From Mobula hypostoma (taxonomy: Eukaryota): a stretch of 64,000 bases of DNA. The notes beneath the pieces are model-generated. The model did not search any database and had not been told where the DNA came from. It saw only the letters and a program-made list of their open reading frames with translations. The stretch spans positions 59,212,001 to 59,276,000 of the forward strand of contig NC_086108.1 of assembly GCF_963921235.1 (NCBI RefSeq), written 5' to 3'. The translations under genes were made by a program, and so were the position numbers. Below are positions 7,322 through 64,000 of the stretch, in pieces (position 1 is the stretch's first letter; the number at the start of each line of letters is the position of its first letter).

Positions 7322-7815
7322 TCAGAGAGCACTACAGGTCAGAAACAGGTCCTTAGGCCTATCTAGTCTGTGCAGAACTGTTATTTTGCCTAGTCCCAAC
7401 TGGACCATCACCTCCCATACACTTCCCACACACTTCCCACCAATGTACTTATCCAAACTTCTCTTAAATGTTGCAAATGGACCTGCATCCACCACTTCCG
7501 TTGGCAGCTCATACCATACTCGCACCAACCTCTGAGTGAAGAAGTTTCTCCTCAGGTTTCTGTTAAGTATTTCACCTTTCACTCTTTACCAATGACCTCT
7601 AGTTCTAGCTTCAGCCAACCTCAGTGGAAAAGCCTGCTTGCATTTACCCTACCTCTACCCCTCATAATTTTGTATATCACAATCAAACCTCCCCTGATTC
7701 ACATATGCTCTAGGTAATAAAATCCTAACCTACTCAAACTATCCCTATAATTCAGGTCCTCAAATCCCGGCAATATCTTTGTAAATTTTCTCTGTACTCT
7801 TTCAATCTCAGCTGA
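7322..7815 (-). mobile_element. CR1 LINE 3' end
   Basis: LRRNFFTQRLVRVWYELPTEVVDAG..FKRSLDKY is the CR1 ORF2 C-terminus, followed by the CR1 3' UTR. Confidence 0.88.
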
Positions 7816-8212
7816 CATTCTTCAAAGAAATGGAGTCCGTGATTATTATTGATTTCCTGTAGAGTGTTTTGGGATGTTCTGAAAGGATTGTTAGCAATGC
7901 TACATAAATAGAAAACGATAGTGATTAAGTGTGGTATTCAGGGGAGTAGATCTGGAATCAAGAGCCCAAATCATGAAATCAGGAGGGGAATTTAACCACA
8001 TAAAACCAGAATAAAAATGCCAGCCTCAGAAATAGTAATCATGAAACTTCCAGATCCCTGTTCAAGCCTAAGAGAGAAATTTTTTGTCCTTATTCTACTG
8101 TTTACGTGGAGGTGTGGCCTTAAAAACTGAGAGCTTCATATGGTATGTTCTAAATACATTGTTGTACCAGTTTGAGCGTGGCTGCTTTTAAAAAGGATAT
8201 TCTGCAGTTCCA

Positions 8213-16424: not shown

Positions 16425-17595
16425 TCCTATCTCCTTTACCATAGCGTTGGAGAGGGATAGGGACAGACAAATCAGTAAAGCATTTAATTCGAGTAAGGGG
16501 AAATATGAAGCTATCAGGCAGGAACTTGGAAGCATAAATTGGGAACAGATGTTCTCAGAGAAATGTATGGCAGAAATGTGGCAAATGTTCAGGGGATATT
16601 TGCATGGTATTCTGCATATGTACATTCCAATGAGACAGGGAAAGAATGGAAGGGTGCAGGAACCATGGTGTACAAAGGCTGTTGAAAATCTAGTCAAGAA
16701 GAAAAGAAGAGCTTACGAAATGTTCAAAAAACTAGGTAATGATAGAGATCTAGAAGATTATAAGGCTAGCAGGAAGGAGCTTAAGAATGAAATTAGGAGA
16801 GCCAGAAGGGGCCATGAGAAGGCCTTGGCGAGCAGAATTAAAGAAAACCCCAAGGCATTCTATAAGTACGCGAAGAGCAAGAGGGTAAGATATGAGAGAA
16901 TAGGACCAATCAAGTGAGACAGTGAAAAAGTGTGAATAGAAACAGAGGAGACAGAAGGGTTATTTAATGAATACTTTGCTTCAGTATTCACTACGGAAAA
17001 GGATCTTGGTGATTGTAGGGATAACTTACAGTGGATTGAAAAGCTTGAGCATATAGAGATTAAGGAAGAGGATGTGCTGGAGCTTTTGGAAAGCATCAAG
17101 TTGGATAAGTCTCCGGGAACAGATGAGATGTACTGCAAGCTACTGTGGGAGGTGAGGGAGGCGATTGCTGAGCCTCTGGCAATGATCTGTGCATCATCAA
17201 TGGGGATGGGAGAAGTTCCAGAGGATTGGAGGGTTGCAGATGTTGTTCCCTTATTTATGAAAGGGAGTAGAGATAGCCCAGGAAATTATAGACCAGTGAG
17301 TCTTACTTCAGTGGTTGATAAGTTGATGGGAAAAATCCTGAGAGGCACGACTCATGAACATTTGGAGAGGCATAATATGATTAGGAATAGTCAGCATGGC
17401 TTTGTTAAAGGCAGGTCATGCTTGATTGAATTTTTTGAGGATGTGACTAAACATGTTGATGAAGGTAGAGCAGTAGATATAGTGTATATGGATTTTAGCA
17501 AGGCATTTGACAAGGTACCCCATGCAAGGCTTATTGAGAATGTAAGGAGGCATGGGATCCAAGGAGACCTTACTTTGTAGATGCAGAATTAGCTT
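16425..17595 (+). mobile_element. CR1 LINE ORF2 internal fragment
   Basis: IKENPKAFYKY, DKSPGTDEMY, WRVADVVPLFMKG..PGNYRPVSLTSVV, SQHGFVKGRSC, YMDFSKAFDKVPH. Confidence 0.92.
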
Positions 17596-23827: not shown

Positions 23828-24484
23828 ATGTCCCCTGTGGCCATTCCCCTCAGCAACAAGTATACCGCATTGGATACTGTTGGGCGGGATGACTTACCTG
23901 GGACAAGCTGCAGTAGCCGGATCTCTGGCACTGAGTCTGGCTCTGCAGTGCAGAAGGGAGGGTGGAAAAAGAGGAGAGCGGTAGTGATAGGGGATTCGAT
24001 AGTTAGGGGTGCAGATAGGAGGTTCTGTGGTCGTGACAGAGAATCCAGGATGGTTTGTTGCCTCCCGGGTGCCAGGGTCAAGGATGTCTCTGATTGATTG
24101 CATGACATTCTGAAGTGGGAGGGTGATCAGCCAGATGTCGTGGTGCACATCGGTACCAATGACATAGCAAGGAAGAATGAGGAGGTCCTGGACAGTGAGT
24201 ATAGAGAGCTTGGTAGGAAGTTGAAAAGCAGGACCTCAAGGGTGGTAATCTCAGGATTGCTACCTGTGCTAGGTGCCAGTGAGGGTAGGAATAGGATGCT
24301 CTGGAGGATGAACAAGTGGCCTAGGAACTGGTGTAGGGGGCAGGGTTTCAGATTTCAGGATCATTGGGACCTCTTCTGGGGCAGGTGGGACCTGTACAAG
24401 AGAGACGGGTTACACTTGAACTACAGGGGGACCAATATCCTTTCAGGGAGGTTTGTTAGTGCTATTGGAGAGGCTTTAAACTAG
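23828..24484 (+). pseudogene. CR1 ORF1, SGNH/GDSL esterase-like domain (partial, one internal stop at 24095-24097)
   Basis: AVVIGDSIVRG, CLPGARV, VVVHIGTND, YKRDGLHLN. Confidence 0.92.
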
Positions 24485-27400
24485 ATTTGCAGGGGGATGG
24501 GAACCAGATTACCAGAGCTGACAGTGTGGCTGGGGTGAAAATAAATGATGTTAAATGTTCAAGCAAATCCGCTGATAGAAAGGTTGTGAGTGGTGGTAAA
24601 ATTCTTCTGAGGTGTATATATTTCAATGCTAGGAGTATTGCGGGGAAGGCGGATGCGTTGAGGGCGTGGATTGACATGTGGAATTATGACGTTATAGCAA
24701 TTAGTGAAACTTGGCTACAGGAGGGGCAGGACTGGCAGCTTAATATTCCAGGGTTCCGATGTTTCAGATGTGATCGAGGCAGAGGAATGAAAGGTGGGGG
24801 AGTAGCATTGCTTGTTAGGGAAAATATTACAGCAGTGCTCAGGCAGGACAGATTAGAGGGCTTGTCTACTGAGTCCTTATGGGTGGAGCTGAGAAACAGG
24901 AAAGGTATGGCCACATTAGTGGGATTGTATTACAGACCACCCAATAGTCAACAAGACTTGGAAGAGCAAATCTGCAGAGAGATAGCAGGCAACTGCAGGA
25001 AACATAAAGTTGTGGTGGTAGGGGATTTTAATTATCCATACATTGATTGGGACTCCCATACTGTTAGGGGTCTAGATGGTTTAGAGTTTGTAAAATGTGT
25101 TCAGGAAAGTTTTCTAAATCAATATACAGAGGGACCAACTAGTGGGGATGCAATATTGGATCTCCTGTTAGGAAACGAGTTAGGACAAGTGACGGAAGTC
25201 TGTGTAGGGGAGCACTTTGGTTCCAGTGATCATAACACCATTAGTTTCAATTTGATCATGGACAAGGATAGATCTGGTCCTAGAGTTGAGGTTCTGAACT
25301 GGAAGAAGGCCAAATTTGAAGAAATGAGAAAGGATCTAAAAAGCGTGGATTGGGACAGGTTGTTCTCTGGCAAAGATGTGATTGGTAGGTGGGAAGCCTT
25401 CAAAGGGGAAATTTTGAGAGTGCAGAGTTTGTATGTTCCTGTCAGGATTAAAGGCAAATTGAATAGGAATAAGGAACCTTGGTTCTCAAGGGAAATTGCA
25501 ACTCTGATAAAGAAGAAGAGGGAATTGTATGAAATGTATAGGGAACAGGGAGTAAATCAAGTGCTTGAGGAGTATAAGAAGTGCAAGAAAATACTTAAGA
25601 AAGAAATCAGGAGGGCTAAAAGAAGAACAACAGGAATTCTGCAGATGCTGGAAATTCAAGCAACACACATCAAAGTTGCTGGTGAACGCAGCAGGCCAGG
25701 CAGCATCTATAGGAAGAGGTGCAGTCGACGTTTCAGGCCGAGACCCTTCGTCCTGAAACGTCGACTGCACCTCTTCCTATAGATGCTGCCTGGCCTGCTG
25801 CGTTCACCAGCAACTTTGATGGGCTAAAAGAAGACATGAGGTTGCCTTGGCAGTCAAAGTGAAGGATAATCCAAAGAGCTTTTACAGGTATATTAAGAGC
25901 AAAAGGATTGTAAGGGATAAAATTGGTCCTCTTGAAGATCAGAGTGGTCGGCTATGTGCAGAACCAAAGGAAATAGGGGAGATCTTAAATAGGTTTTTTG
26001 CGTCTGTATTTAATAAGGAAACTGGCATGAAGTCTATGGAATTGAGGGAATCAAGTAGTGAGATCATGGAAACTGTACAGATTGAAAAGAAGGAGGTGCT
26101 TGCCGTCTTGAGGAAAATTAAAGTGGATAAATCCCCAGGGCCTGACAGAGTGTTCCCTCGGACCTTGAAGGAGACTAGTGTTGAAATTGCGGGGGCCCTG
26201 GCAGAAATACTTAAAATGTCGCTGTCTAGGGGTGAGGTGCTGGAGGACTGGAGAGTGGCTCATGTTGTTCCATTGTTTAAAAAAGGATCGAAAAGTAATC
26301 CGGGAATTTATAGGCCGGTGAGTTTAACGTTGGTAGTAGGTAAATTATTGGAGGGAGTACTAAGAGACAGAATCTACAAGCATTTGGATAGACAGGGACT
26401 TATTAGGGAGAGTCAACATGGCTTTGTGCGTGGTAGGTCATGTTTGACCAATCTATTGGAGTTTTTTGAGGAGGTTACCAGGAAAGTGGATGAAGGGAAG
26501 GCAGTGGATATTGTCTACATGGATTTCAGTAAGGCCTTTGACAAGGTCCCGCATGGGAGGTTAGTTAGGAAAATTCAGTCACTAGGTATACATGGAGAGG
26601 TGGTAAATTGGATTAGACATTGGCTCAATGGAAGAAGCCAAAGCGTGGTGGTAGAGAATTGCTTCTCTGAGTGGAGGCCTGTGACTAGTGGTGTGCCACA
26701 GGGATCAGTGCTGGGTCCATTGTTATTTGTCATCTATATCAATGATCTGGATGATAATGTGGTAAATTGGATCAGCAAATTTGCTGATGATACAAAGATT
26801 GGAGGTGTAGTAGACAGTGAGGAAAGTTTTCAGAGCCTGCAGAGGGACTTGGACCAGCTGGAAAAATGGGCTGAAAAATGGCAGATGGAGTTTAATACAG
26901 ACAAGTGTGAGGTATTGCACGTTGGAAGGACAAACCAAGGTAGAACACACAGGGTTAATGGTAAGGCACTGAGGAGTGCAGTGGAACAGAGGGATCTGGG
27001 AATACAGATACAAAATTCCCAAAAAGTGGCGTCACAAGTAGATAGGGTAGTAAAGAGAGCTTTTGGTACATTGGCCATTATTAATCAAAGTATTGAGTAT
27101 AAGAGCTGGAATGTTATGATGAGGTTGTATAAGGCATTGGTGAGGCCGAATCTGGAGTATTGTGTTCAGTTTTGGTCACCAAATTACAGGAAGGATATAA
27201 ATAAGGTTGAAAGAGTGCAGAGAAGGTTTACAAGGATGTTGCCGGGACTTGAGAAACTCAGTTACAGAGAAAGGTTGAATAGGTTAGGACTTTATTCCCT
27301 GGAGTGTAGAAGAATGAGGGGAGATTTGATAGAGGTATATAAAATTATGATGGGTATAGATAGAGTGAATGCAAGCAGGCTTTTTCCACTGAGGCAAGGG

Positions 27401-27622
27401 GAGAAAAAAACCAGAGGACATGGGTTAAGGGTGAGGGGGGAAAAGTTTAAAGGGAACATTAGGGGGGGCTTCTTCACACAGAGAGTGGTGGGAGTATGGA
27501 ATGAGCTGCCAGATGAGGTGGTAAATGCGGGTTCTTTATTAACATTTAAGAATAAATTGGGCAGATACATGGATGGGAGGTGTATGGAGGGATATGGTCC
27601 ATGTGCATGTCAGTGGGACTAG
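24475..27622 (+). pseudogene. CR1 ORF2 (APE endonuclease plus RT), interrupted only by the mini-PLE at 25627-25820
   Basis: YFNARS, ISETWL, YYRPP, GDFN, SDHN, then RT motifs PQGSVLGP and KFADD. Joining 25626 to 25835 restores the frame (IRRAKRR|HEVALAVKVK). Confidence 0.95.
25627..25820. mobile_element. Palindromic mini-Penelope element (194 bp), 14-bp TSD
   Basis: 69-bp perfect inverted arms (25669-25737 / 25752-25820) with a 14-nt loop. TSD GGGCTAAAAGAAGA at 25613-25626 and 25821-25834. Confidence 0.95.
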
Positions 27623-39819: not shown

Positions 39820-42800
39820 GGAGGGTATTTGTGGGCAGGAGATAGGGGACAGCAGGGAAGCTCAAGGCTTAGGTGATTGGCAGTGATAATGGACTATTTA
39901 GTAAGAAGCACTGATGGGTATTTCTGTGGCCACAAGTGAGATTCCAGGTACCTTGCCTCCCTGGAGCCAGTGATAATGATGTCTCTCAGTGAGTACATGA
40001 CATTCTTAAAGTGGAGGGTAAGCAGTTTGAGATCACAGTCTATATTGGGAGAAATAACATAGACAGGAAGACAGATGATGCCTTGAATAGTGTATATAGG
40101 AAATTAGGGAGAAAATTAAAAAGCAGAACCTCTTGCAATTGCAGAATATTCCTTCTGCCATGTGCAAGTAGGATGATTGAGGGGAAGGCTAAATCAAGTA
40201 AGTCTAAAAGCAAAAGCAGACAGGACAGCCAGAAGGTAACATAGATCAGCAGAGATCCTCACCATCCAGGCCATGTCATCTTTTGCAGCTACCAGTAGGC
40301 AACAGCTACAGAAGCCTTAAGTCCCACAACACCAGGATCCAACCATTTGGTTCTTATATCTATCTGCACAATCCTAATGACTACCTCAGAATCAGATATA
40401 ATACCACTGATGTATGTCATGAAGATTGTTGTTTTGTGACAGCAGTACTGATAAAACATAAAAATGTCTACACATTACAAAAATCTATAAATAGTGCAAA
40501 AGATGAATAATTATCTATGTTCATTGACTCATGGACCATTCAGAAATATGATGGCAGAAGGTGAAAAGCTGTTCTTAAAGCACTGAGTGTGAGACTTCAG
40601 CCTCGTATACCTCCTTCTCAATGGTAGTAACATGAAGAGGGCATGTTCCCAAGGACGATGGATGGTGCCTTCTTGAGGCACTGCCTCTTGAAAATGTCCT
40701 CAGCAGGGGAAAGTTGTGACCACTTTGCACTACAACGTACTTTGTTTCTGTATTCTAATTGTGTCTTTCTTGTATAATTTATGCTCATGTTTTCCTTGTG
40801 ATTGTTGTCTCTCTGGTGCTACATGCCTGCAGCTGTATCATTGGACCTGTAATGCTGCTGCAAGCTTATCATTGCACCTGTAGATACATGTACTTGTGCT
40901 TATGTCAATAAACTTGACTTTGACTTTAACTTTGATAACGAACACAGTGGGCCAGATGATTTGATGTGTTTTATTCTCATTCAAAGAGAATAGCAGATAA
41001 AGCAAATGAACTTAGAACTTGGATTAGTACATGGAAGTACTGTGTTATATTGTTGTCACTGCAGAAACTTGGTTGAGAGAAGGGCAGAGCTAATAGTTCA
41101 TTGTTATAGGGTACAGATTAGTTAGATATGTCAGAGAGGAAGTGCAAAGAGCTGGGGGAACTGCTTTATTGATTAAGAGAGCACCAAGAGAGCACATCTT
41201 TTTGAGGGCTCATCAGCAAGGCCATGTCGATAGAACTCAGGAATCAGAAGGGTGCAGTCATTATGATGGGCTTATACTGTAGGCCTTCCAATAAGTAGCA
41301 AGATTGAGAGGAGCAGATCTGTAGGCAGCTCATGGAGAAAAGTGAAAATAATGCAATTGTACTGGGTGATTTTAACTTCCCTAATAATGACTGTGACAAG
41401 ATGGGGCAGAATCTGTTAGGGTTTCCTGAAACAATGTGTAGAAACTCCAAGTGAGGATAAGATTTTACTAGGTCTTGTATGGGTGAATGAACCTTCTACA
41501 CGATTTAAGTCTTAATTCGGGAGTATTTTCTGAACAGTGACCATAATTCCATAAATTTTAAGATGGTTATGGACAAGTTTGATTCTTAGATGGAAGTGCA
41601 AAATTGGAGGAAGGCTAATTATAATGGAATTAGGCAAGAACTGGAGAAAGTAGATTGGTTCAAAGAATCTACAGTTATTTGAAGGTAATTCCACATCTGA
41701 CATGTGAGAGTTCAGGACCAGCATATTTATGTGAAGATGAAAGTAAGGATGACAAGAGAGATATTGTAAACTCAGTCAAAAAGGAAAAGGAAGCATGGGT
41801 AAGGCTTAGAGTGCTGATATCAGACAAAGCATTTCATGAATATAAAGGATGCTGGTTCACTCACATGGCAGATGCAAATTAATGCAGATAATACTGAAGT
41901 GATATACACTCAGTGGGCCATTTTATTAGATACCTTTTTAGTCTTCATCTGCTGTAGACTGTCCATTTCAAGGATGGACATGCGGATTCAGAGGTGCTCT
42001 TCTACACACCACTGTTGTAACAAGAGGTTATTTGAGTTAATGTGACCTTCCTGTCAGCTTGAACCAGTCTGGCCATTCTCCTCTGACCTCTCTGATGAAC
42101 AAGGTATTTTCACCCATTAATCTGCCACTTACTGGATGTGTTTTTGTTTTTTTTTGCACCATTCTCTATAATTTCTAGAGATGGTTGTGCATGAAATTTG
42201 CAAGAGATTAGCAGTTTTGGAGATACTCAAGCCACCCCATCTGGCACCAATAATCATTTCACAGTCAAAGTCACTTAGATCACATTGCTTTATCATTATG
42301 ATGTACAGTCTGAACAAACATGGATCCTTTTGACCATGACTGCATGCTTTTATGCATTGAGTTGATGCCACATGCTTGACTGATCAGATATCTGCATTAA
42401 TGAACAGGTGTACAGGCAAATCAAATAAGGCGAGTGTATTTTGGTAGAACCAATGATGAAAGGCACAGTAAAAAAAATAATGAAATTTTATAGGGATATA
42501 CTGTAAGAGAGAGATCTAGAAATTCTACTACAAGATAAGATAAGAAAGCTATAGTAGAAGTGTATGGGATCCTTGGTTTTATAAATAAAGTAAGTTAGTT
42601 ATGCTCACATTGATTAGTTGTCAAGAGTACTGCTTTTAATTCTTGGGACTACACTTTAGGGAGGATGCTGAGAAGATTTACTACAATTATGCCAGACGGG
42701 AGTGATTCACTTTAATGGAAAGAATGGCAAAAGGAACTTCTCCTTACAGCAGAGAAGATTAGAAAGGGAGTACTCAAGATCATGAATGTTGATGTAAATA

Positions 42801-47839: not shown

Positions 47840-50618
47840 GTATGGATCAGACCTGGGAATTGAATGTACAAGGGTATACGTGCTATCGAAGGGACAGAAA
47901 GGTGGGCAGAGGGGGTGGGGTGGACCTGTTGGTGAGGAATGAGATTCAGTCCCTTGCAAGGGAGGACATAGAATCAGGAGAAGTAGAGTCAGTGTGGATA
48001 GAACTGAGGAACAGTAAGGGCAAAAAGACCCTAATAGGTGTTACCTACAGGCCCCCAAACAGTAGCATGGATATTGGGTGCAAGTTGAATAGGGAGTTAA
48101 CAATGGCATGTGGCAAAGGAAATGTCGCAGTAGTTATGGGGGATTTTAACATGCAGGTGAACTGGGAAAATCAGGTTGGTACTGGACCCCAGGATAGGGA
48201 GTTTGTAGAGTGCCTACGGGATGCATTTTTGGAGCAGCTTGTACGAGAGCCGACCAGGGATAAGGCTATTCTGGATTTAGTGTTGTGCAATGAATAGGAT
48301 TTGATGTGATCTTGAAGTAAAGGAGCGATTAGGAGGTAGTGACCATAATATGTTAAGTTTTTATCTGCAAGTTGAGAGGGATAAGGGCAGATCAGAAGTG
48401 TCAGTATTGCAGTTGAACAAAGGAGACTATGGAGCCATGAGGGAGGAGCTGGCCAAAGTTGACTGGTCGGATGTCCTAGCAGAAAAGACAGTGGAACAGC
48501 AATGGCAGGTATTCTTGGGAATAATGCACAAGGTGCAAAATCAGTTCATCCTCCGGAGAAGGAAGGATTCAAAGGGGAGAAAGTGGCCACAGTGGTTGAC
48601 AAAGGAAGTCAGAGATAGCATAGCATTAAAAAAGAAGTATAACAGAGCTAAGGTGAGTGGGAAGATGAATGATTGGGAAATTTTTAAGGAGCAACAGAAC
48701 TTAACTAAAAAGGCAATACGGGGAGAAAAAATGAGGTATGAACGCAAGCTAGCTAGGAATATAAAGGAGGATAGCAAAAGTTTTTTTAGGCAGGTGAAGA
48801 GAAGGAAGATAGTTAAGAACAATGTTGGGCCCTTGAAGAATGAATTGGGGGAAATTGTTATGGGAAACAGAGAAATGGCAGACGAATTTAATAAGTACTT
48901 TGGATCTGTCTTCACTAGGGAAGACACAAGCAATCTCCCAGATGTAGGGATGGGCCAAGGACATAGGGTAACAGAGGAACTGAAACAGATCGACATTAGG
49001 AAGGAAACAGTGATGAGTAGACTGATGGGACTGAAGGCTAACAAATCCCCAGGTCCAGATGGTCTGCATCCTAGGGTACTAAAGGAGGTGGCTCTGGAAA
49101 TTGCGGATGCATTGGTGATCATTTTCCAATGTTCCTTAGATTCAGGATCAGTTCCTGAGGATTGGTGAATGGCTAATGTTATCCCACTTTTTAAGAAAGG
49201 AGGGAGGGAGAAAACAGAGAACTATCGCCCTGTTAACCTAACATCAGTAGTGGGGAAGATGCTAGTGTCCATTACTAAAGATGAAATAGCAGCATATCTT
49301 GACAGCAGTGATAAGATTGGGCCGAGCCAGCATGGATTTACCAAGGGCAAATCATGCTTGACGAATCTATTGGAGTTTTTCGAGGATGTAACTAGGAAGA
49401 TAGAAGTGGGAGATCCAGTGGATGTGGTCTACCTTGACTTTCAGAAGGCATTTGATAAGGTACCGCATAGGGATTGGTGGGTAAAATCAGAGCTCATGGC
49501 ATTGGGGGGAGGATATTGACATGGATAGAAAACTGGTTGGCAGATAGAAAGCAAAGGATAGCAGTCAATGGGTGTTTCTCGGAATGGCAGGTGGTGACTA
49601 GTGGGGTGCCACAGGGCTCGGTATTGGGACCACAGCTGTTTACGATTTACGTCAATGACTTAGAGGAAGGCATTGTGAATAACATCAGCAAGTTTGCTGA
49701 TGATACTAAGCTAGGTGGCAGTGTGACATGTGATGAGGATGTTAGGAGAATTCAAGGTGACTTGGATAGGCTGGGTGAGTGGGCAGAAAGTTGGCAGATG
49801 GCGTTTATTGTGAATAAGTGTGAGGTTATTCACTTTGGGAGCAAGAACAGGAAGGCAGATTATTATCTGAATGGTGTGGAGTTAGGTAAGGGAGAAATAC
49901 AAAGAGATCTAGGAGTACTTGCTCATCAGTCTCTGAAGGTGAATGAGCAAGTGCGGCAGGCAGTGAATAAGGCTAATGGAATGTTGGCCTTTATTACAAA
50001 GGGAATGGAGTACAAGAGCAAGGAAATCCTTTTGTATTTGTACAGGGCCCTGGTGAGACCACACCTTGTGTATTGTGTGCAGTTTTGGTCTCCAGGGTTA
50101 AGGAAGGACATCCTGGCTGTGGAGGAGGTGCAGCATAGGTTCACTAGGTTAATTCCTGGGCTGTCCGGACTGTCTTACGCAGAGAGGTTAGAGAGACTGG
50201 GCTTGTACACGCTGAAATTAAGGAGATGAGGGGGGATCTGATTGAGACATATAAGATTATTAAGAGATTGGACAGGATAGAGGCAGGAAATATGTTCCAG
50301 ATGCTGGGAGAGTCCAGTACCAGAGGGCATGGTTTAAGAATAAGGGGTAGGTCATTTAGGACAGAGTTGAGGAGGAACTTCTTCTCCCAGAGAGTTGTGG
50401 AGGTGTGGAATGCGCTGCCTCAGAAGGCAGTGGAGGCCAATTCTCTGGATGCTTTCAAGAAGGAGCTAGATAGGTATCTTATGGATAGGGGAATCAAGGG
50501 TTATGGGGACAAGGCAGGAACCGGGTATTGATAGTAGATGATCAGCCATGATCTCTGAATGGCGGTGCAGGCTCGAAGGGCCGAATGGTCTACTTCTGCA
50601 CCTATTGTCTATTGTCTA
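47840..50618 (+). mobile_element. CR1 LINE, family B, 5'-truncated ORF2 with stops and frameshifts
   Basis: ORFs 47842-50531 carry APE (YRPPNS, GDFN) and RT (PQGSVLGP, KFADD) motifs, with a (CTATTGT)n tail at ~50601-50618. Confidence 0.95.
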
Positions 50619-51698: not shown

Positions 51699-52375
51699 CA
51701 TAGAACCATAGAACCATAGAAACTACAGCACAGAAACAGGCCCTTTGGCCCTTCTTGGCTGTGCCGAACCATTTTCTGCCTAGTCCCACTGACCTGCACA
51801 CGGACCATATCCCTCCATACACCTCCCATCCATGTACCTGTCCAATTTATTCTTAAATGTTACAAAAGAACCCGCATTTACCACCTCATCTGGCAGCTCA
51901 TTCCATACTCCCACCACTCTCTGTGTGAAGAAGCCCCCCACAATGTTCCCTTTAAACTTTTCCCCCCTCACCCTTAACCCATATCCTCTGGTTTTTTTCT
52001 CCCCTTGCCTCAATGGAAAAAGCCTGCTTGCATTCACTCTATCTATACCCATCATAATCTTATATACCTCTATCAAATCTCCCCTCATTCTTCTACGCTC
52101 CAGGGAATAAAGTCCTAACCTATTCAACCTTTCTCTGTAACTGAGTTTCTCAAGTCCTGGCAACATCCTTGTAAACCTTCTCTGCACTCTTTCAACCTTA
52201 TTTATATCCTTCCTGTAATTTGGTGACCAAAACTGAACACAATACTCCAGATTCGGCCTCACCAATGCCTTATACAACCTCATCATAACATTCCAGCTCT
52301 TATAACATTCCAGCTCTTATACTCAATACTTCAATTAATAAAGGCCAATGTACCAAAAGCTCTCTTTACGACCCT
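51699..52375 (-). mobile_element. CR1 family A 3' end, near-identical to 27040-27705
   Basis: ORF 51780-52286 matches the C-terminus of 25847-27622, with a (CATAGAAC)n tail and a 17-bp internal duplication near 52285-52320. Confidence 0.95.
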
Positions 52376-55965: not shown

Positions 55966-56477
55966 CAGAATGTCCACATCTACTGCTTGTAAAGTGATTA
56001 TTGCCTTAAATATTTGTGCATCAACATTTTCAAGGTGCAACAAGGGGACAAATATAATATCACTCTTGATTGTGTCTTTCTTATCTTTACTACTAACAGG
56101 AAATTGGCAGGGCTTTTCAAATTTCCCTGTGGAAAAAAACTAGCATAATTTGCTGTGATGTCCTGTGGTACTGATGGTTCTGGCCACAGGCACCCTTAAG
56201 TTAAGAGTGGGAAACGACCTGAGAACATAAAATAAGTACAAGTCAAGGAAACAATTTCTGCAGTAATTCCTTGCTGCCTCCTAGTCTCCTAATGAATGGC
56301 CCAGTCAGCATTGCAACTTCCTATTTCTTTTAAAATCATATTTTTCTGTTACCAAAAGTAAGAGATATAAATTTGATGCAAACAACAGGAATTCTGCAGA
56401 TGCTGGAAATTCAAGCAACACACATCAAAGTTGCTGGTGAACGCAGCGGGCCAGGCAGCATCTGTAGGAAGAGGTGC

Positions 56478-56513
56478 AGTCGACGTTTCAGGCTGAGACC
56501 CTTCGTCAGGACT
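56478..56513 (-). ncRNA. Minimal type I hammerhead ribozyme of PLE, core intact
   Basis: Minus strand AGTC-CTGACGA-AGG GTCTCAG CCT-GAAAC-GTC-GACT. Confidence 0.82.
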
Positions 56514-57615
56514 AACTGAAGGAAGAGTGAGTAAGGGATTTGAAAGTTGGAGGGGGAGGGGGAGATCCAAAATGATAGGAGAAGACAGGAGGGGGAGGGA
56601 TGGAGCCAAGAGCTGGACAGGTGATAGGCAAAAGGGATACGAGAGGATCATGGGACAGGAGGTCCGGGAAGAAAGACAAGGAGGGGGGCAGGGACCCAGA
56701 GGATGGGCAAGAGGTATATTCAGAGGGACAGAGGGAGAAAAAGGAGAGTGAGAGAAAGAATGTGTGCATAAAAATAAGTAACAGATGGGGTACGAGGGGG
56801 AGGTGGGGCATTAGCGGAAGTTAGAGAAGTCGATGTTCATGCCATCAGGTTGGAGGCTACCCAGACGGAATATAAGATGTGTTTCGAGTGTGGCTTCATC
56901 TTTACAGTAGAGGAGGCCGTGGATAAACATGTCAGAATGGGAATGGGATGTGGAATTAAAATGTGTGGCCACTGGGAGATCCTGCTTTCTCTGGCGGACA
57001 GAGCGTAGATGTTCAGCAAAACGGACTCCCAGTCTGTGTCAGGTCTCGCCAATATATAAAAGGCCACATCGGGAGCACCGGACACAGTATATCACCCCAG
57101 CCGACTCACAGGTGAAGTGTTGCCTCACCTGGAAGGATTGTTTGGGGCCCTGAATGGTGGTAAGGGAGGAAGTGTAAGGGCATGTGTAGCACTTGTTCCG
57201 CTTACATGGATAAGTGCCAGGAGGGAGATCAGTGTGGAGGGATGGGGGGGGGACGAATGGACAAGGGAGTTGCGTAGGGAGCGATCCCTGCGGAATGCGG
57301 GGGGGGGAGGGAAAGATGTGCTTAGTGGTGGGATCCCGTTGGAGGTGGCGGAAGTTACGGAGAATAATATGTTGGACCTGGAGGCTGGTGGGGTGGTAGG
57401 TGAGGACCAGGGGAACCCTATTCCTAGTGGGGTGGCGGGAGGATGGAATGAGAGCAGATGTACGTGAAATGGGGGAGATGCGTTTAAGAGCAGAGTTGAT
57501 AGTGGGGGAAGGGAAGTCCCTTTCTTTAAACAAGGAAGACATCTCCCTCATCCTAGAATGAAAAGCCTCATCCTGAGAGCAGATGCGGCGGAGACAGAGG
57601 AATTGCGAGAAGGGA

Positions 57616-59521
57616 CTGCCGACGGGACATCAACCGTCTCGACTTCACCGCACCTTGTCCCCATTCCAACCTCACTCCTTCGGAACGCTCTGCTCTCCAC
57701 TCCCTCCGCACTAATCCTAACCTTATTATTAAACCCGTCGATAAGGGGGGTGCTGTTGTAGTCTGGCGTACTGACCTCTACCTTGCCGAGGCACAGCGAC
57801 AACTCGCGGATACCTCCTCTTATTTACCCCTCGATCGTGACCCCACTAAGGAGCACCAGGCCATTGTCTCCCACACCATCACCGACTTTATCCGCTCAGG
57901 GGATCTCCCATCCACTGCTACCAACCTTATAGTTCCCACACCCCGCACTTCCCGTTTCTACCTCCTACCCAAGATCCACAAATCTGTCTGTCCTGGCCGA
58001 CCTATTGTCTCACCTTGCTCCTGCCCCACCGAACTCATTTCTGCATACCTCAACACGGTTTTATCACCCCTTGTTCAATCCCTTCCAACCTATGTTTGTG
58101 ACACTTCTCACGCTCTTAAACTTTTCGATGATTTTAAGTTCCCTGGCCCCCACCGCTTTATTTTCACCATGGGTGTCCAGTCCTTATATACTTCCATCCC
58201 CCATCAGGAAAGTCTCAAAGCTCTACGCTTCTTTTTGGATTCCAGACCTAATCAGTTCCCCTCTACCACCACTCTGCTCCGTCTAGCAGAATTAGTCCTT
58301 ATTCTTAATAATTTCTCCTTTGGCTCCTCCCACTTCCTCCAAACTAAAGGTGTAGCTATGGGCACCCGTATGGGTGCTAGCTATGCCTGCCTTTTTGTTG
58401 GGTTTGTGGAACAATCTATGTTCCGTGCCTATTCTGGTATCTGTCCCCCACTTTTCCTTCGCTACATCGACGACTGCATTGGCGCTGCTTCCTGCGCGCA
58501 TGCAGAACTCGTTGACTTTATTAACTTTGCCTCCAACTTTCACCCTGCCCTCAAGTTTACCTGGTCCATTTCCGACACCTCCCTCCCCTTTCTAGATCTT
58601 TCTGTCTCTGTCTCTGGAGACAGCTTATCCACTGATGTCTACTATAAGCCTATTGACGCTCACAGCTATCTGGACTATTCCTCTGTCTCTTGCAAAAACG
58701 CCATCCCCTTCTCGCAATTCCTCCGTCTCCGCCGCATCTGCTCTCAGGATGAGGCTTTTCATTCTAGGACGAGGGAGATGTCTTCCTTTTTTAAAGAAAG
58801 GGGCTTCCCTTCCTCCACTATCAACTCTGCTCTTAAACGCATCTCCCCCATTTCACGTACATCTGCTCTCACTCCATCCTCCCGCCGCCCCACTAGGAAT
58901 AGGGTTCCCTGGTCCTCACCTACCACCCCACCAGCCTCCGGGTCCAACATATTATTCTCCGTAACTTCCGCCACCTCCAACGGGATCCCACCACTAAGCA
59001 CATCTTTCCCTCCCCCCCTCTCTCAGCATTCCGCAGGGATCGCTCCCTACGCAACTCCCTTGTCCATTCGTCCCCCCCCATCCCTCCCCACTGATCTCCC
59101 TCCTGGCACTTATCCATGTAAGCGGAACAAGTGCTACACATGCCCTTACACTTCCTCCCTTACCACCATTCAGGGCCCCAAACAATCCTTCCAGGTGAGG
59201 CAACACTTCACCTGTGAGTCGGCTGGGGTGATATACTGCGTCCGGTGCTCCCGATGTGGCCTTTTATATATTGGCGAGACCCGACGCAGACTGGGAGACC
59301 GCTTTGCTGAACATCTACGCTCTGTCCGCCAGAGAAAGCAGGATCACCCAGTAGCCACACATTTTAATTCCACATCCCATTCCCATTCTGACATGTCTAT
59401 CCACGGCCTCCTCTACTGTAAAGATGAAGCCACACTCAGGTTGGAGGAACAACACCTTATATTCCATCTGGGTAGCCTCCAACCTGATGGCATGAACATC
59501 GACTTCTCTAACTTCCGCTAA
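57616..59521 (+). pseudogene. PLE ORF: reverse transcriptase, Cys linker and GIY-YIG endonuclease, 5'-truncated with small indels
   Basis: IIKP.DKGG, FYLLPKIHK..PGRPIVS, FTMGVQSLYTSIPH, QTKGVAMGT, FLRYIDDC, PFLDL, CKRNKCYTC, VIYCVRCSRCGLLYIGET. Confidence 0.95.
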
Positions 59522-59848: not shown

Positions 59849-60291
59849 GCACCTCTTCCTACAGATGCTGCCTGGCCTGCTGCGTTCACCAGCAACTTTG
59901 ATAAATTTGATGGATGTATTTTTTGTAAGAGTAAAAGGTGGTTAATTTAATCTTACAGTGTCCCTTGACATTGCAAGATCAAATCAATATGATCCAACAT
60001 CATAGCTTATTTATCCAGGACGGAACTGCTGTATCCTGTAGCACAGTATCCTGCATTTTCTCAGGATTTTGTCTTCACTGTTCTATCCATTTCATATGTT
60101 GATCGATCCTCGTGTGACGAAGAAATTCTTGACAATCAATCCTACCTTTCCAGTGCCTTGCTTGAACCTGCATCACTTGGTATTTGGCTTGAAATCATGC
60201 TGTGGATCATTTGTAATTATGTATCTTAGTTTTCAAATATCTGGCATCTCCAAGCCTCCCAGACGTCTACATCTGCGCCAAGTGCATCGAG

Positions 60292-61110
60292 ATGCAGCTT
60301 CTAAGGGACCGCGTTACGGAACTGGAGCTGCAGCTTGATGACCTTCATCTGGTCAGGGAGAGTGAGGAGGTGATAGAGAGGACGCCGGGGCCACGGGAGG
60401 CAGACAAGTGGGTCACGGTTAGGAGGGGGAAGGGGAAAAGTCAGGTGATGGGGAGTACCCCGGTGGCTGTGCCCCTTAACAACAGGTACTCCTGTTTGAG
60501 TACTGTTGGCAGGGCCAGCTTACCCGGGGGAAGCGACAGTGGCCGTGCCTCCGGCACAGAGTCTGGCCCTGTAGCTCAGAAGGGTAGGGCAAGGAAGAGG
60601 AGGGCAGTTGTGATAGGGGACTCGATAGTAAGGGGGTCAGATAGGCGATTTTGTGGATGCAGTCCAGAGACCCGGATGGTAGTTTGCCTCCCTGGTGCCA
60701 GGGTCAGGGATATTTCTGATCGTGTCCAAGATATCCTGAAGTGGGAGGGTGAGGAGCCAGAGGTCGTGGTACATATAGGTACCAATGACATAGGTAGGAA
60801 AAGAGATGAGGTCCTGAAAGGAGAATATAGGGAGCTAGGAAGAGAGTTGAGAAAAAGGACCGCAAAGGTAGTAATCTCGGGATTACTGCCTGTGCCAAGC
60901 AACAGTGAGAGTAGGAATGCGATGAGGTGGAGGACAAATGCGTGGCTGAGGGATTGGAGCAGGGGGCAGGGATTCAAGTTTTTGGATCATTGGGACCTCT
61001 TTTGGCGCAGGCGTGACCTGTACAAAAAGGACGGGTTACACTTGAATCCTAGGGGGACCAATATCCTGGCAGGGAGATTAGCGGGAGCTACTGAGGTGAC
61101 TTTAAACTAG
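60292..61110 (+). CDS. CR1 ORF1p (coiled coil plus SGNH esterase-like domain), N-terminally truncated
   Basis: LLRDRVTELELQLDDL, AVVIGDSIVRG, VVVHIGTNDI, YKKDGLHLN. Confidence 0.88.
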   Translation: MQLLRDRVTELELQLDDLHLVRESEEVIERTPGPREADKWVTVRRGKGKSQVMGSTPVAVPLNNRYSCLSTVGRASLPGGSDSGRASGTESGPVAQKGRARKRRAVVIGDSIVRGSDRRFCGCSPETRMVVCLPGARVRDISDRVQDILKWEGEEPEVVVHIGTNDIGRKRDEVLKGEYRELGRELRKRTAKVVISGLLPVPSNSESRNAMRWRTNAWLRDWSRGQGFKFLDHWDLFWRRRDLYKKDGLHLNPRGTNILAGRLAGATEVTLN

Positions 61111-64000
61111 AATGGTTGGGGGGTGGGAATCAAATTAAAGAGGCTAGGCGTGAGGAGGTTAGTTCACAACAGAGGGATGGGAACCAGTGCAGAGAGACAG
61201 AGGGGTGTAAAGTGAGGGTAGAAGCAAAAAGTACAAAGGAGAAAAGTAAAAGTGGCAGGCCGACAAATCCAGGGCAAGCAATAAAAAGGGCCACTTTTCA
61301 ACATAATTGTATAAGGGCTAAGAGAGTTGTAAAAGAGCGCCTGAAGGCTTTATGTGTCAATGCAAGGAGCATTCGTAATAAGGTGGATGAATTGAAAGTG
61401 CAGATTGTTATTAATGATTATGATATAGTTGGGATCACAGAGACATGGCTCCAGGGTGATGAGGGATGGGAGCTCAACGTTCAGGGATATTCAATATTCA
61501 GGAGGGATAGACATGAAGGAAGGGGAGGTGGGGTGGCGTTGCTGGTTAAAGAAGAGATTAACGCAATAGAAAGGAAGGACATAAGCCGGGAAGGTGTGGA
61601 ATCGATATGGGCAGAGCTGCGTAACACCAAGGGGCAGAAGACGCTGGTGGGAGTTGTGTACAGGCCACCTAACAGTAGTAGTGAGGTCGGAGATGGTATT
61701 AAACAGGAAATTAGAAATGTGTGCAATAAAGGAACAGCAGTTATAATGGGTGACTTCAATCTACATGTAGACTGGGTGAACCAAATTGGTAAAGGTGCTG
61801 AGGAAGAGGATTTCTTGGAATGTATGCGGGATGGCTTTTTGAACCAACATGTCGAGGAACCAACTAGAGAGCAGGCTATTCTGGACTGGGTTTTGAGCAA
61901 TGGGGAAGGGTTAATTAGCGATCTTGTCCTGAGAGGCCCCTTGGGTAAGAGTAACCATAATATGGTGGAATTCTTCATTAAGATGGAGAGTGACATAGTT
62001 AATTCAGAAACAAAGGTTCTGAACTTAAAGAGGGGTAACTTTGAAGGTATGAGACGTGAATTAGCTAAGATAGACTGGCAAATGACACTTAAAGGATTGA
62101 CGGTGGATATGCAATGGCAAGCATTTAAAGGTTGCATGGATGAACTACAACAATTGTTCATCCCAGTTTGGCAAAAGAATAAATCAAGGAAGGTAGTGCA
62201 CCCGTGGCTGACAAGAGAAATTAGGGATAGTATTAATTCCAAAGAAGAAGCATACAAATTAGCCAGAGAAAGTGGCTCACCTGAGGACTGGGAGAAATTC
62301 AGAGTTCAGCAGAGGAGGACAAAGGGCTTAATTAGGAAGGGGAAAAAAGATTATGAGAGAAAACTGGCAGGGAACATAAAAACGGACTGTAAAAGCTTTT
62401 ATAGATATGTAAAAAGGAAAAGACTGGTAAAGACAAATGTAGGTCCCCTGCAGACAGAAACAGGTGAATTGATTATGGGGAGCAAGGACATGGCAGACCA
62501 ATTGAATAATTACTTTGGTTCTGTCTTCACTAAGGAGGACATAAATAATCTTCCAGAAATAGTAAGGGACAGAGGGTCCAGTGAGATGGAGGAACTGAGC
62601 GAAATACATGTTAGTAGGGAAGTGGTGTTAGGTAAATTGAAGGGATTGAAGGCAGATAAATCCCTAGGGCAAGATGGTCTGCATCCTAGAGTGCTTAAAG
62701 AAGTAGCCCAAGAAATAGTGGATGCATTAGTGATAATTTTTCAAAACTCGTTAGATTCTGGACTAGTTCCTGAGGATTGGAGGGTGGCTAATGTAACCCC
62801 ACTTTTTAAAAAAGGAGGGAGAGAGAAACCGGGGAATTATAGACCGGTTAGCCTAACGTCGGTGGTGGGGAAACTGCTGGAGTCAGTTATCAAGGATGTG
62901 ATAACAGCACATTTGGAAAGCGGTGAAATCATCGGACAAAGTCAGCATGGATTTGTGAAAGGAAAATCATGTCTGACGAATCTCATAGAATTTTTTGAGG
63001 ATGTAACTAGTAGAGTGGATAGGGGAGAACCAGTGGATGTGGTATATTTGGATTTTCAAAAGGCTTTTGACAAGGTCCCACACAGGAGATTAGTGTGCAA
63101 ACTTAAAGCACTCGGTATTGGGGGTAAGGTATTGGTGTGGGTGGAGAATTGGTTAGCAGACAGGAAGCAAAGTATGGGAATAAACGGGACCTTTTCAGAA
63201 TGGCAGGCGGTGACTAGTGGGGTACCGCAAGGCTCAGTGCTGGGACCCCAGTTGTTTACAATATATATTAATGACTTGGATGAGGGAATTAAATGCAGCA
63301 TCTCCAAGTTTGCGGATGACACGAAGCTGGGTGGCAGTGTTAGCAGTGAGGAGGATGCTAAGAGGATGCAGGGTGACTTGGATAGGTTGGGTGAGTGGGC
63401 AAATTCATGGCAGATGCAATTTAATGTGGATAAATGTGAAGTTATCCACTTTGGTGGCAAAAATAGGAAAACAGATTATTATCTGAATGGTGGCCGATTA
63501 GGAAAAGGGGAGGTGCAACGAGACCTGGGTGTCATTATACACCAGTCATTGAAAGTGGGCATGCAGGTACAGCAGGCGGTGAAAAAGGCGAATGGTATGC
63601 TGGCATTTATAGCGAGAGGATTCGAGTACAGGAGCAGGGACGTACTACTGCAGTTGTACAAGGCCTTGGTGAGACCACACCTGGAGTATTGTGTGCAGTT
63701 TTGGTCCCCTAATCTGAGGAAAGACATCTTTGCCATAGAGGGAGTACAAAGAAGGTTCACCAGATTGATTCCTGGGATGGCAGGACTTTCATATGAAGAA
63801 AGACTGGATGAATTGGGCTTGTACTCGTTGGAATTTAGAAGATTGAGGGGGGATCTGATTGAAACGTATAATATCCTAAAGGGATTGGACAGGCTAGATG
63901 CAGGAAGATTGTTCCCGATGTTGGGGAAGTCCAGAACGAGGGGTCACAGTTTGAGGATAGAGGGGAAGCCTTTTAGGACCGAGATTAGGAAAAACTTCTT
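61101..64000 (+). CDS. CR1 ORF2p (APE endonuclease plus RT), open for about 966 codons to the window end, no initiator AUG
   Basis: The frame from 61101 reads FKLEWLGGGNQ..LCVNARSI..GITETWL..YRPPN..GDFN. KFADD (63306) and RLFPM (63906) fall in the same frame. It is absent from the ORF track, which fits no stop before the edge. Confidence 0.9.

Follow-up and report, generated by a model that had tools for sequence, protein, structure and literature searches.

How the second open reading frame (ORF2) of a long interspersed nuclear element (LINE) is translated has been called an open question, and a 2013 review of protein biogenesis in retrotransposons that lack long terminal repeats (non-LTR retrotransposons) considers coupling, re-initiation and internal ribosome entry sites for ORF2, with no discussion of frameshifting in the part of its text covered here (PMC3894237). 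CR1-group elements are LINEs that have been called the dominant retrotransposons of most vertebrate species (PMC13343379). The subject of this report is the ORF1/ORF2 junction of a CR1 copy at the 3′ end of a 64,000-nucleotide (nt) stretch of the Mobula hypostoma genome (contig NC_086108.1, positions 59,212,001 to 59,276,000, forward strand), referred to below as the window. ORF1 ends there in a slippery heptamer directly followed by its stop codon, ORF2 lies one base back, and programmed -1 ribosomal frameshifting is probably the best explanation of this arrangement, at a probability of roughly 0.8.

Frameshifting in Related Retroelements and Viruses

Articles cited by PMC number are represented by parts of their texts, and statements about them apply to those parts. 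A -1 frameshift has been stated for TRE5-A and TRE3-A, APE-type non-LTR retrotransposons of Dictyostelium (PMC5911963), which differ from CR1 in clade, host kingdom and ORF1; the passages covered name neither a slip site nor a stimulator for them. Penelope-like elements, which belong to another retroelement order with a GIY-YIG endonuclease, can have their ORF1 split off by a frameshift for which a pseudoknot is drawn (PMC8557442), and esterases are found in CR1, RTEX and Penelope elements (PMC3905857). L1 and SART1 resemble CR1 in that ORF2 is the second frame of a bicistronic LINE RNA and depends on ORF1 translation. However, their ORF2 begins with an AUG (in a UAAUG overlap in SART1) and yields a separate protein, ORF2p, whereas CR1 has no such AUG and instead carries a conserved slippery heptamer.

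The gag-pol genes of retroviruses and LTR retrotransposons and coronavirus ORF1a/1b share the heptamer class and phase of CR1 (U_UUA_AAC in infectious bronchitis virus, PMC5009743), and in each the polymerase is added onto a first protein with a structural or RNA-binding role. A pseudoknot or stem-loop typically lies 3′ of those sites, whereas none was found in CR1, where the stop codon abuts the heptamer and an unstructured G-tract comes next. The arterivirus nsp1-beta/PCBP type is like CR1 in spacing only (the G-tract starts at +11, as against 12-15 nt, PMC5009743); its stimulator is C-rich, whereas the CR1 tract is G-rich and a protein bound to it is hypothetical.

In the parts covered, PMC5009743 does not mention CR1 and PMC3905857 does not mention frameshifting, and the main text of PMC13343379 contains none of the terms frameshift, slippery, start codon or translat. 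No statement of a CR1 frameshift was found in the literature searched; older CR1 papers and Repbase reports lay outside its scope, and an earlier mention is possible. The case is one of a known mechanism in an element group for which no description of it was found, in an atypical, structure-free context.

The CR1 Copy at the 3′ End of the Window

The features of this copy, followed by a second CR1 copy with the same junction, are as follows.

60241..61110, plus strand: CR1 ORF1 of a 5′-truncated copy (by Pfam, the PDB 4c1b match and frame analysis), a coiled-coil region followed by an SGNH/GDSL esterase (~60613-61056), ending in T-L-N-stop
61092..61094, plus strand: TGA shutting the -1 frame just 5′ of the heptamer
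61101..61107, plus strand: slippery heptamer T_TTA_AAC in the ORF1 phase
61107..61340, plus strand: linker from the slip site to the endonuclease, open only in the -1 frame and without an in-frame AUG
61108..61110, plus strand: ORF1 stop codon TAG abutting the heptamer; reads CTA (Leu) in the -1 frame
61112..61138, plus strand: out-of-frame AUG mini-ORF of 8 codons, family-specific, as other lineages are without it
61118..61127, plus strand: conserved G-tract, +11 to +20 past the heptamer, a candidate unstructured 3′ stimulator
61341..64000, plus strand: ORF2 with APE endonuclease and reverse transcriptase (RT, ~62817-63470), continuing past the window and intact to its stop
23832..27472, plus strand: second, divergent CR1 copy, with ORF1 at ~61% and ORF2 at 40-55% amino acid (aa) identity to the first

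The ORF1 frame runs from stop to stop over 60217-61110 and finishes with the codons ACT TTA AAC TAG, which places TTTAAAC in X_XXY_YYZ phase at the very end of the upstream frame. A slip of -1 would enter the frame that opens at 61095, two codons before the heptamer, and that continues for 1,015 codons to its stop when the adjoining genome stretch is counted. This frame overlaps the heptamer, stays open into conserved domains, and carries the endonuclease (PF03372, PF14529) and RT (PF00078) matches. Its NARS and ETWL motifs lie at 61359 and 61440, ahead of its first in-frame ATG at 61746, while the AUG at 61112 starts an 8-codon reading in another frame; thus the SART1-type arrangement, in which an AUG of the ORF2 frame overlaps or adjoins the ORF1 stop, is absent. 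All of these observations bear out the preliminary description of the locus. Because ORF2 lies one base back and lacks a start codon of its own, its enzyme is likely made as a fusion via a -1 slip, and because the TGA at 61092-61094 closes the -1 frame, any such shift is confined between this codon and the ORF1 stop.

The element belongs with the CR1 LINEs that have an esterase (type IV) ORF1. Its ORF1 esterase is recognized by Pfam (GDSL/SGNH, PF13472, E 3e-16) and by the solved ZfL2-1 ORF1 esterase (PDB 4c1b, E 8e-41), and its ORF2 has an APE endonuclease followed by RT. CR1 elements have a short 3′ untranslated region (UTR) and end in an 8-nt microsatellite without poly(A); here the ORF2 stop is followed by ~100 nt and a (TTTCTATG)n tail of the microsatellite type. 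ORF1 ends like that of the window are found in consensuses labelled LINE/CR1, and the nearest named proteins are those of rays and skates (91% for Mobula hypostoma). The copy starts at ~60241, without a 5′ UTR or the ORF1 AUG, and its ORF1 has an 18-nt in-frame deletion. Since it is both truncated and deleted, the frameshift argument applies to the master elements of the family, whose ORF1 protein has 311 aa, and not to this copy.

In-phase XXXYYYZ words occur once in 297 ORF1 codons, as the heptamer itself, and never in 968 ORF2 codons. The window shows no over-representation of the 10-mer alone (9 matches with at most one mismatch against 7.1 expected), but both exact matches are CR1 ORF1 ends. 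The second of these belongs to the divergent copy, which has TTTAAAC at 24475-24481, TAG at 24482-24484, and a G-tract next.

Conservation of the Heptamer in the Mobula hypostoma Genome

A pattern for the esterase DGLHLN motif matches the genome 22,767 times, compared with 1,105 for its control, and TTTAAACTAR follows at exactly 53 nt in 13,021 of the 22,767 matches, compared with 0 in the reversed control. Leu/Phe-Asn-TRR endings at this fixed place begin the heptamer with T in 13,978 matches and with a different base in 439; the latter, among the 100 matches listed of the 439, are spread over lineages. An unselected sample was formed from the first 90 of 100 listed among the DGLHLN matches, 87 of which are esterase ORF1 ends. 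The exact heptamer is present in 70 of these 87 copies, and the stop next to it is TAG in 45 and TAA in 30.

The heptamer is conserved at the nucleotide level and, in one distant element, exchanged for another slippery word, G_GGA_AAC. Its three third-codon positions score 0.93 with families equally weighted, whereas the 115 third positions examined upstream have a median of 0.69 and only 4-5 of them reach the same score; as many other wobble positions are also invariant among the seven multi-copy lineages compared, this within-genome test is suggestive and not decisive. The T before the Leu codon is retained while the amino acid of the codon that it ends varies (commonest residue 46%), and an equivalent Leu-Asn pair 60 nt upstream does vary synonymously. 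Synonymous variation of the terminal Leu-Asn codons had been named at the outset as a sign against a slip site, and these codons and the preceding base are invariant among lineages.

Several side observations concern the same region. In the two codons before the first codon of the heptamer (61093-61098 and homologous positions), a third-position G is kept at 0.93-0.96 while the amino acids vary, and there may be a G-rich element immediately 5′ of the slip site. In one family, two copies (L045 and L056) share T_TTA_AAG in place of T_TTA_AAC, which may mark a small sub-lineage or result from duplication or recurrent mutation. Two further copies 3.4 Mb apart (L072 and L073) apparently have one short inversion in common just 5′ of the heptamer. 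A copy with a 1,376-codon open frame was considered as a natural ORF1-ORF2 fusion and rejected, as its stop is retained and other sequence is joined upstream. Contigs of four runs from other organisms give no variant or joint at 61101-61110 among the matches listed, a result that cannot show absence and is given no weight.

The Frame and Linker of ORF2

The frame survey covers 119 copies: the 87 unselected copies, 30 chosen for a non-T first base, and two from the window. A recognizable junction together with an endonuclease start is present in 102 of them, including 75 unselected copies. The offset of ORF2 is -1 in 73 of the 102, +1 in 18, and 0 in 11, and the unselected copies alone give 55, 12 and 8, respectively. 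Each of the five large families with resolved copies has a -1 majority, in line with the constant offset that a frameshift site would demand.

The linker between heptamer and endonuclease measures 42-111 codons in -1 copies. Over 4,157 linker codons there are 45 stops in the -1 frame, compared with 311 in frame 0 and 413 in frame +1, and in most families the -1 frame is shut 2-5 codons upstream of the heptamer. This scarcity of stops, together with closure just upstream, indicates that maintenance of an open -1 frame starts with the heptamer and not ahead of it. An in-frame AUG ahead of the endonuclease would have offered an ordinary start; none occurs within the first 98 codons in 30 copies of the window's CR1 family, which were chosen by protein identity, and in four large families an in-frame linker Met is sporadic (2/14, 3/15, 1/14 and 2/11).

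The Junction in Other Animals and Homologous Proteins

Four recognizable LINE junctions are present among 17 metagenome loci. Locus L091 has T_TTA_AAC_TAG and the distant element L092 has G_GGA_AAC_TAG, and in both the -1 frame runs into the endonuclease. The two related loci that remain, L096 (1743-1800) and L099 (1249-1305), have a TAA at the esterase end, then 16 codons, TGA-C, and a frame-0 linker to the endonuclease; this junction may be one of stop read-through or re-initiation, and no RNA structure above shuffles was found at it.

In the consensus table of a 2026 survey of the CR1 group (PMC13343379 supplement), 17 of 23 TTTAAACTA matches read as ORF1 ends, mostly with a G-rich tract next, although the matches are motif-selected, 6 of the 23 are not junctions, and table cells were covered up to 400 letters. 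By name prefix, these junctions come from alligator, crocodile, frog, coelacanth, bowfin, one teleost, chimaera, sharks and rays. A motif-free denominator did not emerge from the table, as a search for one gave mostly unrelated rows. Two related consensuses of the table (SquAca_CR1-3 and SquAca_CR1-18) also have TTTAAACTAR and a G-rich stretch near the 5′ end, before the apparent ORF1 start.

At the protein level, ORF1 products from turtle, swallow and sturgeon have LN as their last two residues; a strict search of the M. hypostoma genome with a sturgeon protein gave no match. From 150 homologues at the 50% cluster level, 107 with the last esterase motif 20-45 residues from the end were kept and 43 were dropped. 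These 107 form 50 families, of which 33 end in Asn, and 30 of the 33 do so as L-N (22), G-N (7) or K-N (1). The third-last residue is compatible with X_XXA_AAN in 29 of the 30. The residue ahead of the pair is one that is unable to end in T for 1 of the 22 L-N families but for 5 of the 7 G-N families. The words U_UUA_AAC, G_GGA_AAC and A_AAA_AAC are among the most shift-prone words for mammalian ribosomes (Atkins et al., PMC5009743). Because the G-N families form one clade, with the element class known for L092 only, and the search profile ends in L-N, they represent one or few swap events and not seven; for the same reasons, the Fisher p of 0.001 overstates independence.

The terminal residues of ORF1 lie outside the predicted fold, with a model confidence (pLDDT) of <50 at 169-171, and low confidence is common at protein ends. 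In the solved structure of the ZfL2-1 esterase, the chain stops roughly two residues short of the LN positions. The junction is real and is conserved far beyond the window copy.

Other homologues stand apart. In one family (P0170, P0179, P0185, P0192, P0194 and P0210), K-N lies ~10 residues before the stop and the preceding residue is able to end in A, which makes A_AAA_AAC a candidate slip site in an overlap that would be longer. One unrelated locus came out of four scans of viral contigs, and two bacterial records out of a prokaryote scan. P0017, labelled as a Pseudomonas aeruginosa SGNH hydrolase, has 59% identity to the window's CR1 ORF1 and an LN end, and is likely host DNA within a bacterial assembly.

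The Downstream G-Tract

A G-rich tract after the heptamer had been put forward as a stimulator. The tract itself is present and conserved, while a conserved G-quadruplex or stem-loop is not found. It begins at 61114 with a core at 61118-61127. Among 16 representatives, which include L091 and L092 and are mostly related, positions +11 to +20 past the heptamer are 78% G, and at least 8 G in 14 nt are present in 14 of 16, compared with 3.9% of background windows. The tract encodes Gly-x-Gly in the -1 frame, so a protein-level reason for its conservation is possible.

Some 3′ stimulators, a minority, begin 12-15 nt past the shift site, and these can be linear mRNA that works together with trans-acting factors (PMC5009743). 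The spacing of the CR1 tract resembles that of such linear, protein-bound stimulators, by analogy only.

Proposed Mechanism

In the proposed mechanism, some ribosomes would slip back one base on U_UUA_AAC, while the majority would terminate at the neighbouring UAG, releasing the ORF1 protein, ORF1p. Slippage would be in tandem, with tRNA-Leu and tRNA-Asn re-pairing from UUA-AAC and CUA (Leu) decoded next. The predicted transframe product is ..T-L-N/L-E-W..; the preliminary description had expected VTLK/FKL, whereas the standard tandem model predicts ..VTLN/LEW.. instead. The outcome would be an esterase-linker-endonuclease-RT fusion of ~1,320 aa (311 + ~1,013), with shift efficiency determining a low ORF2p:ORF1p ratio. 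The favoured stimulus is a pause from slow termination at the abutting stop, which may act together with a single-stranded and possibly protein-bound G-tract ~10 nt downstream.

A wider proposal is that esterase CR1 LINEs of jawed vertebrates and their animal relatives make RT only as an ORF1p-ORF2p fusion, via an ancient structure-free frameshift that relies on the abutting stop and on a single-stranded G-tract read by a protein, either a host G-tract binder or ORF1p. This remains tentative and is the less probable outcome.

Evidence For and Against Frameshifting

A number of observations weigh against frameshifting at this junction. All evidence for it is comparative. Offsets of 0 or +1 occur in 29 of 102 copies, tentatively attributed to indels after insertion, and several single-copy families have these offsets only. 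An in-frame linker Met is present in 20 of 73 copies overall, including some small, older families (2/2 and 2/3), and L092 has one nine codons before its endonuclease motif. The distant esterase LINE loci L096 and L099 lack the heptamer, and their ORF2 lies in frame 0. Of the 50 homologue families, 17 are without a terminal Asn. The invariant wobble positions elsewhere in ORF1, the motif-selected survey table and the inflated Fisher p belong on this side as well.

The stimulator is the weakest step of the frameshift reading; a heptamer without one usually shifts poorly. No stable structure of the pseudoknot or stem-loop type was found 5-9 nt 3′ of the heptamer, in a search over nested folds and over possible duplexes with the G-tract. 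The local RNA fold after the window heptamer is no better than shuffles (z +0.27), and the mean over the 16 representatives is z +0.43 with no conserved hairpin. A G-quadruplex was rejected as a general stimulator, as a two-tier motif is present in only 5 of 16 representatives compared with 26 of 231 background windows. No common long-range partner of the G-tract emerged among 21 long copies, of which one without the exact heptamer was skipped: the best duplexes of the other 20 lie at unrelated places with shuffled-like energies.

The alternative that survives best is termination at the ORF1 UAG followed by non-AUG re-initiation in the -1 frame, with a separate ORF2p and the conserved sequence serving as a re-initiation signal. 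ORF2 translation in L1 and SART1 has been described as unconventional initiation dependent on ORF1 (PMC2881922), near-cognate codons lie in frame near the CR1 stop (e.g., TTG at 61116), the G-tract keeps a fixed distance to the stop as well as to the heptamer, and the lack of a stimulatory structure suits re-initiation. However, no near-cognate codon is common to all lineages, and re-initiation predicts neither a phased X_XXY_YYZ word, nor an invariant T before Leu, nor the swap to G_GGA_AAC with matching changes of the third-last residue. The family with K-N at the matching place, known at the protein level, has its stop ~10 codons later, which also speaks against re-initiation. Re-initiation is accordingly considered unlikely.

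A second alternative holds that Leu-Asn is kept for the protein, with its codons fixed by descent or bias, and that ORF2 expression relies on an AUG further downstream, on an internal promoter or on RNA splicing. Leu-Asn is indeed almost invariant in close homologues, TTTAAA is TATA-like and TAG resembles a 3′ splice end, and both the additional TTTAAACTAR near the 5′ end of the two dogfish CR1 consensuses and the linker Met of some lineages could be read this way. Codon bias disfavours it: the element uses TTA for 16% of Leu, AAC for 31% of Asn, and T for 24% of third positions in Gly/Ala/Thr/Val codons, and therefore bias does not favour the heptamer. The 30 of 87 copies ending in TAA cannot be splice acceptors, the first AUG of the window's family lies past NARS and ETWL, and the exchange of Leu for Gly or Lys is a radical change in a protein, whereas at a slip site it is a conservative one. 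This alternative has a very low probability. The last, in which slippage of RNA polymerase, or editing, inserts a base into the T/A run and fuses ORF1 to ORF2 in some transcripts, can draw on the short T3A3 run and on 31 genomic copies whose run is one base longer, but it is scarcely credible. The runs have only three bases, and codon phase would be irrelevant; moreover, if ORF2p came from corrected RNAs alone, cis-preference of the kind assumed from L1 should have filled the genome with extra-base copies, which number 31 against 13,021.

Programmed -1 frameshifting has the support of all three comparisons that bear on it in the window's family, namely in-frame AUG codons, ORF2 offset and synonymous variation.

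Other Elements in the Window

More CR1 fragments, from other subfamilies, lie at 47845-50383, 16429-17595 and 39930-40169, and on the minus strand at 51942-52375 and 7541-7836. A Penelope-like element at 57557-59521 (plus strand) has a 654-codon frame with RT-like motifs, and its C-terminus gives a weak GIY-YIG match below the cut-off (E 2.8e-4). An inverted partial copy of this element adjoins it at ~56349-57629 (minus strand).

Implications for CR1 Biology

If programmed frameshifting operates at this junction, CR1 ORF2p would be a gag-pol-like fusion that brings an esterase onto the integration machinery, and one small, easily tested site would set the ORF1p:ORF2p ratio. ORF2 annotations that begin at the first AUG would then lose catalytic endonuclease motifs. 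A conserved shift site without RNA structure would be of interest to the recoding field. If the G-tract is in addition read by a protein, the CR1 junction would represent a class of eukaryotic frameshift signals that works without RNA structure, and a switch through which the host could control LINE activity.

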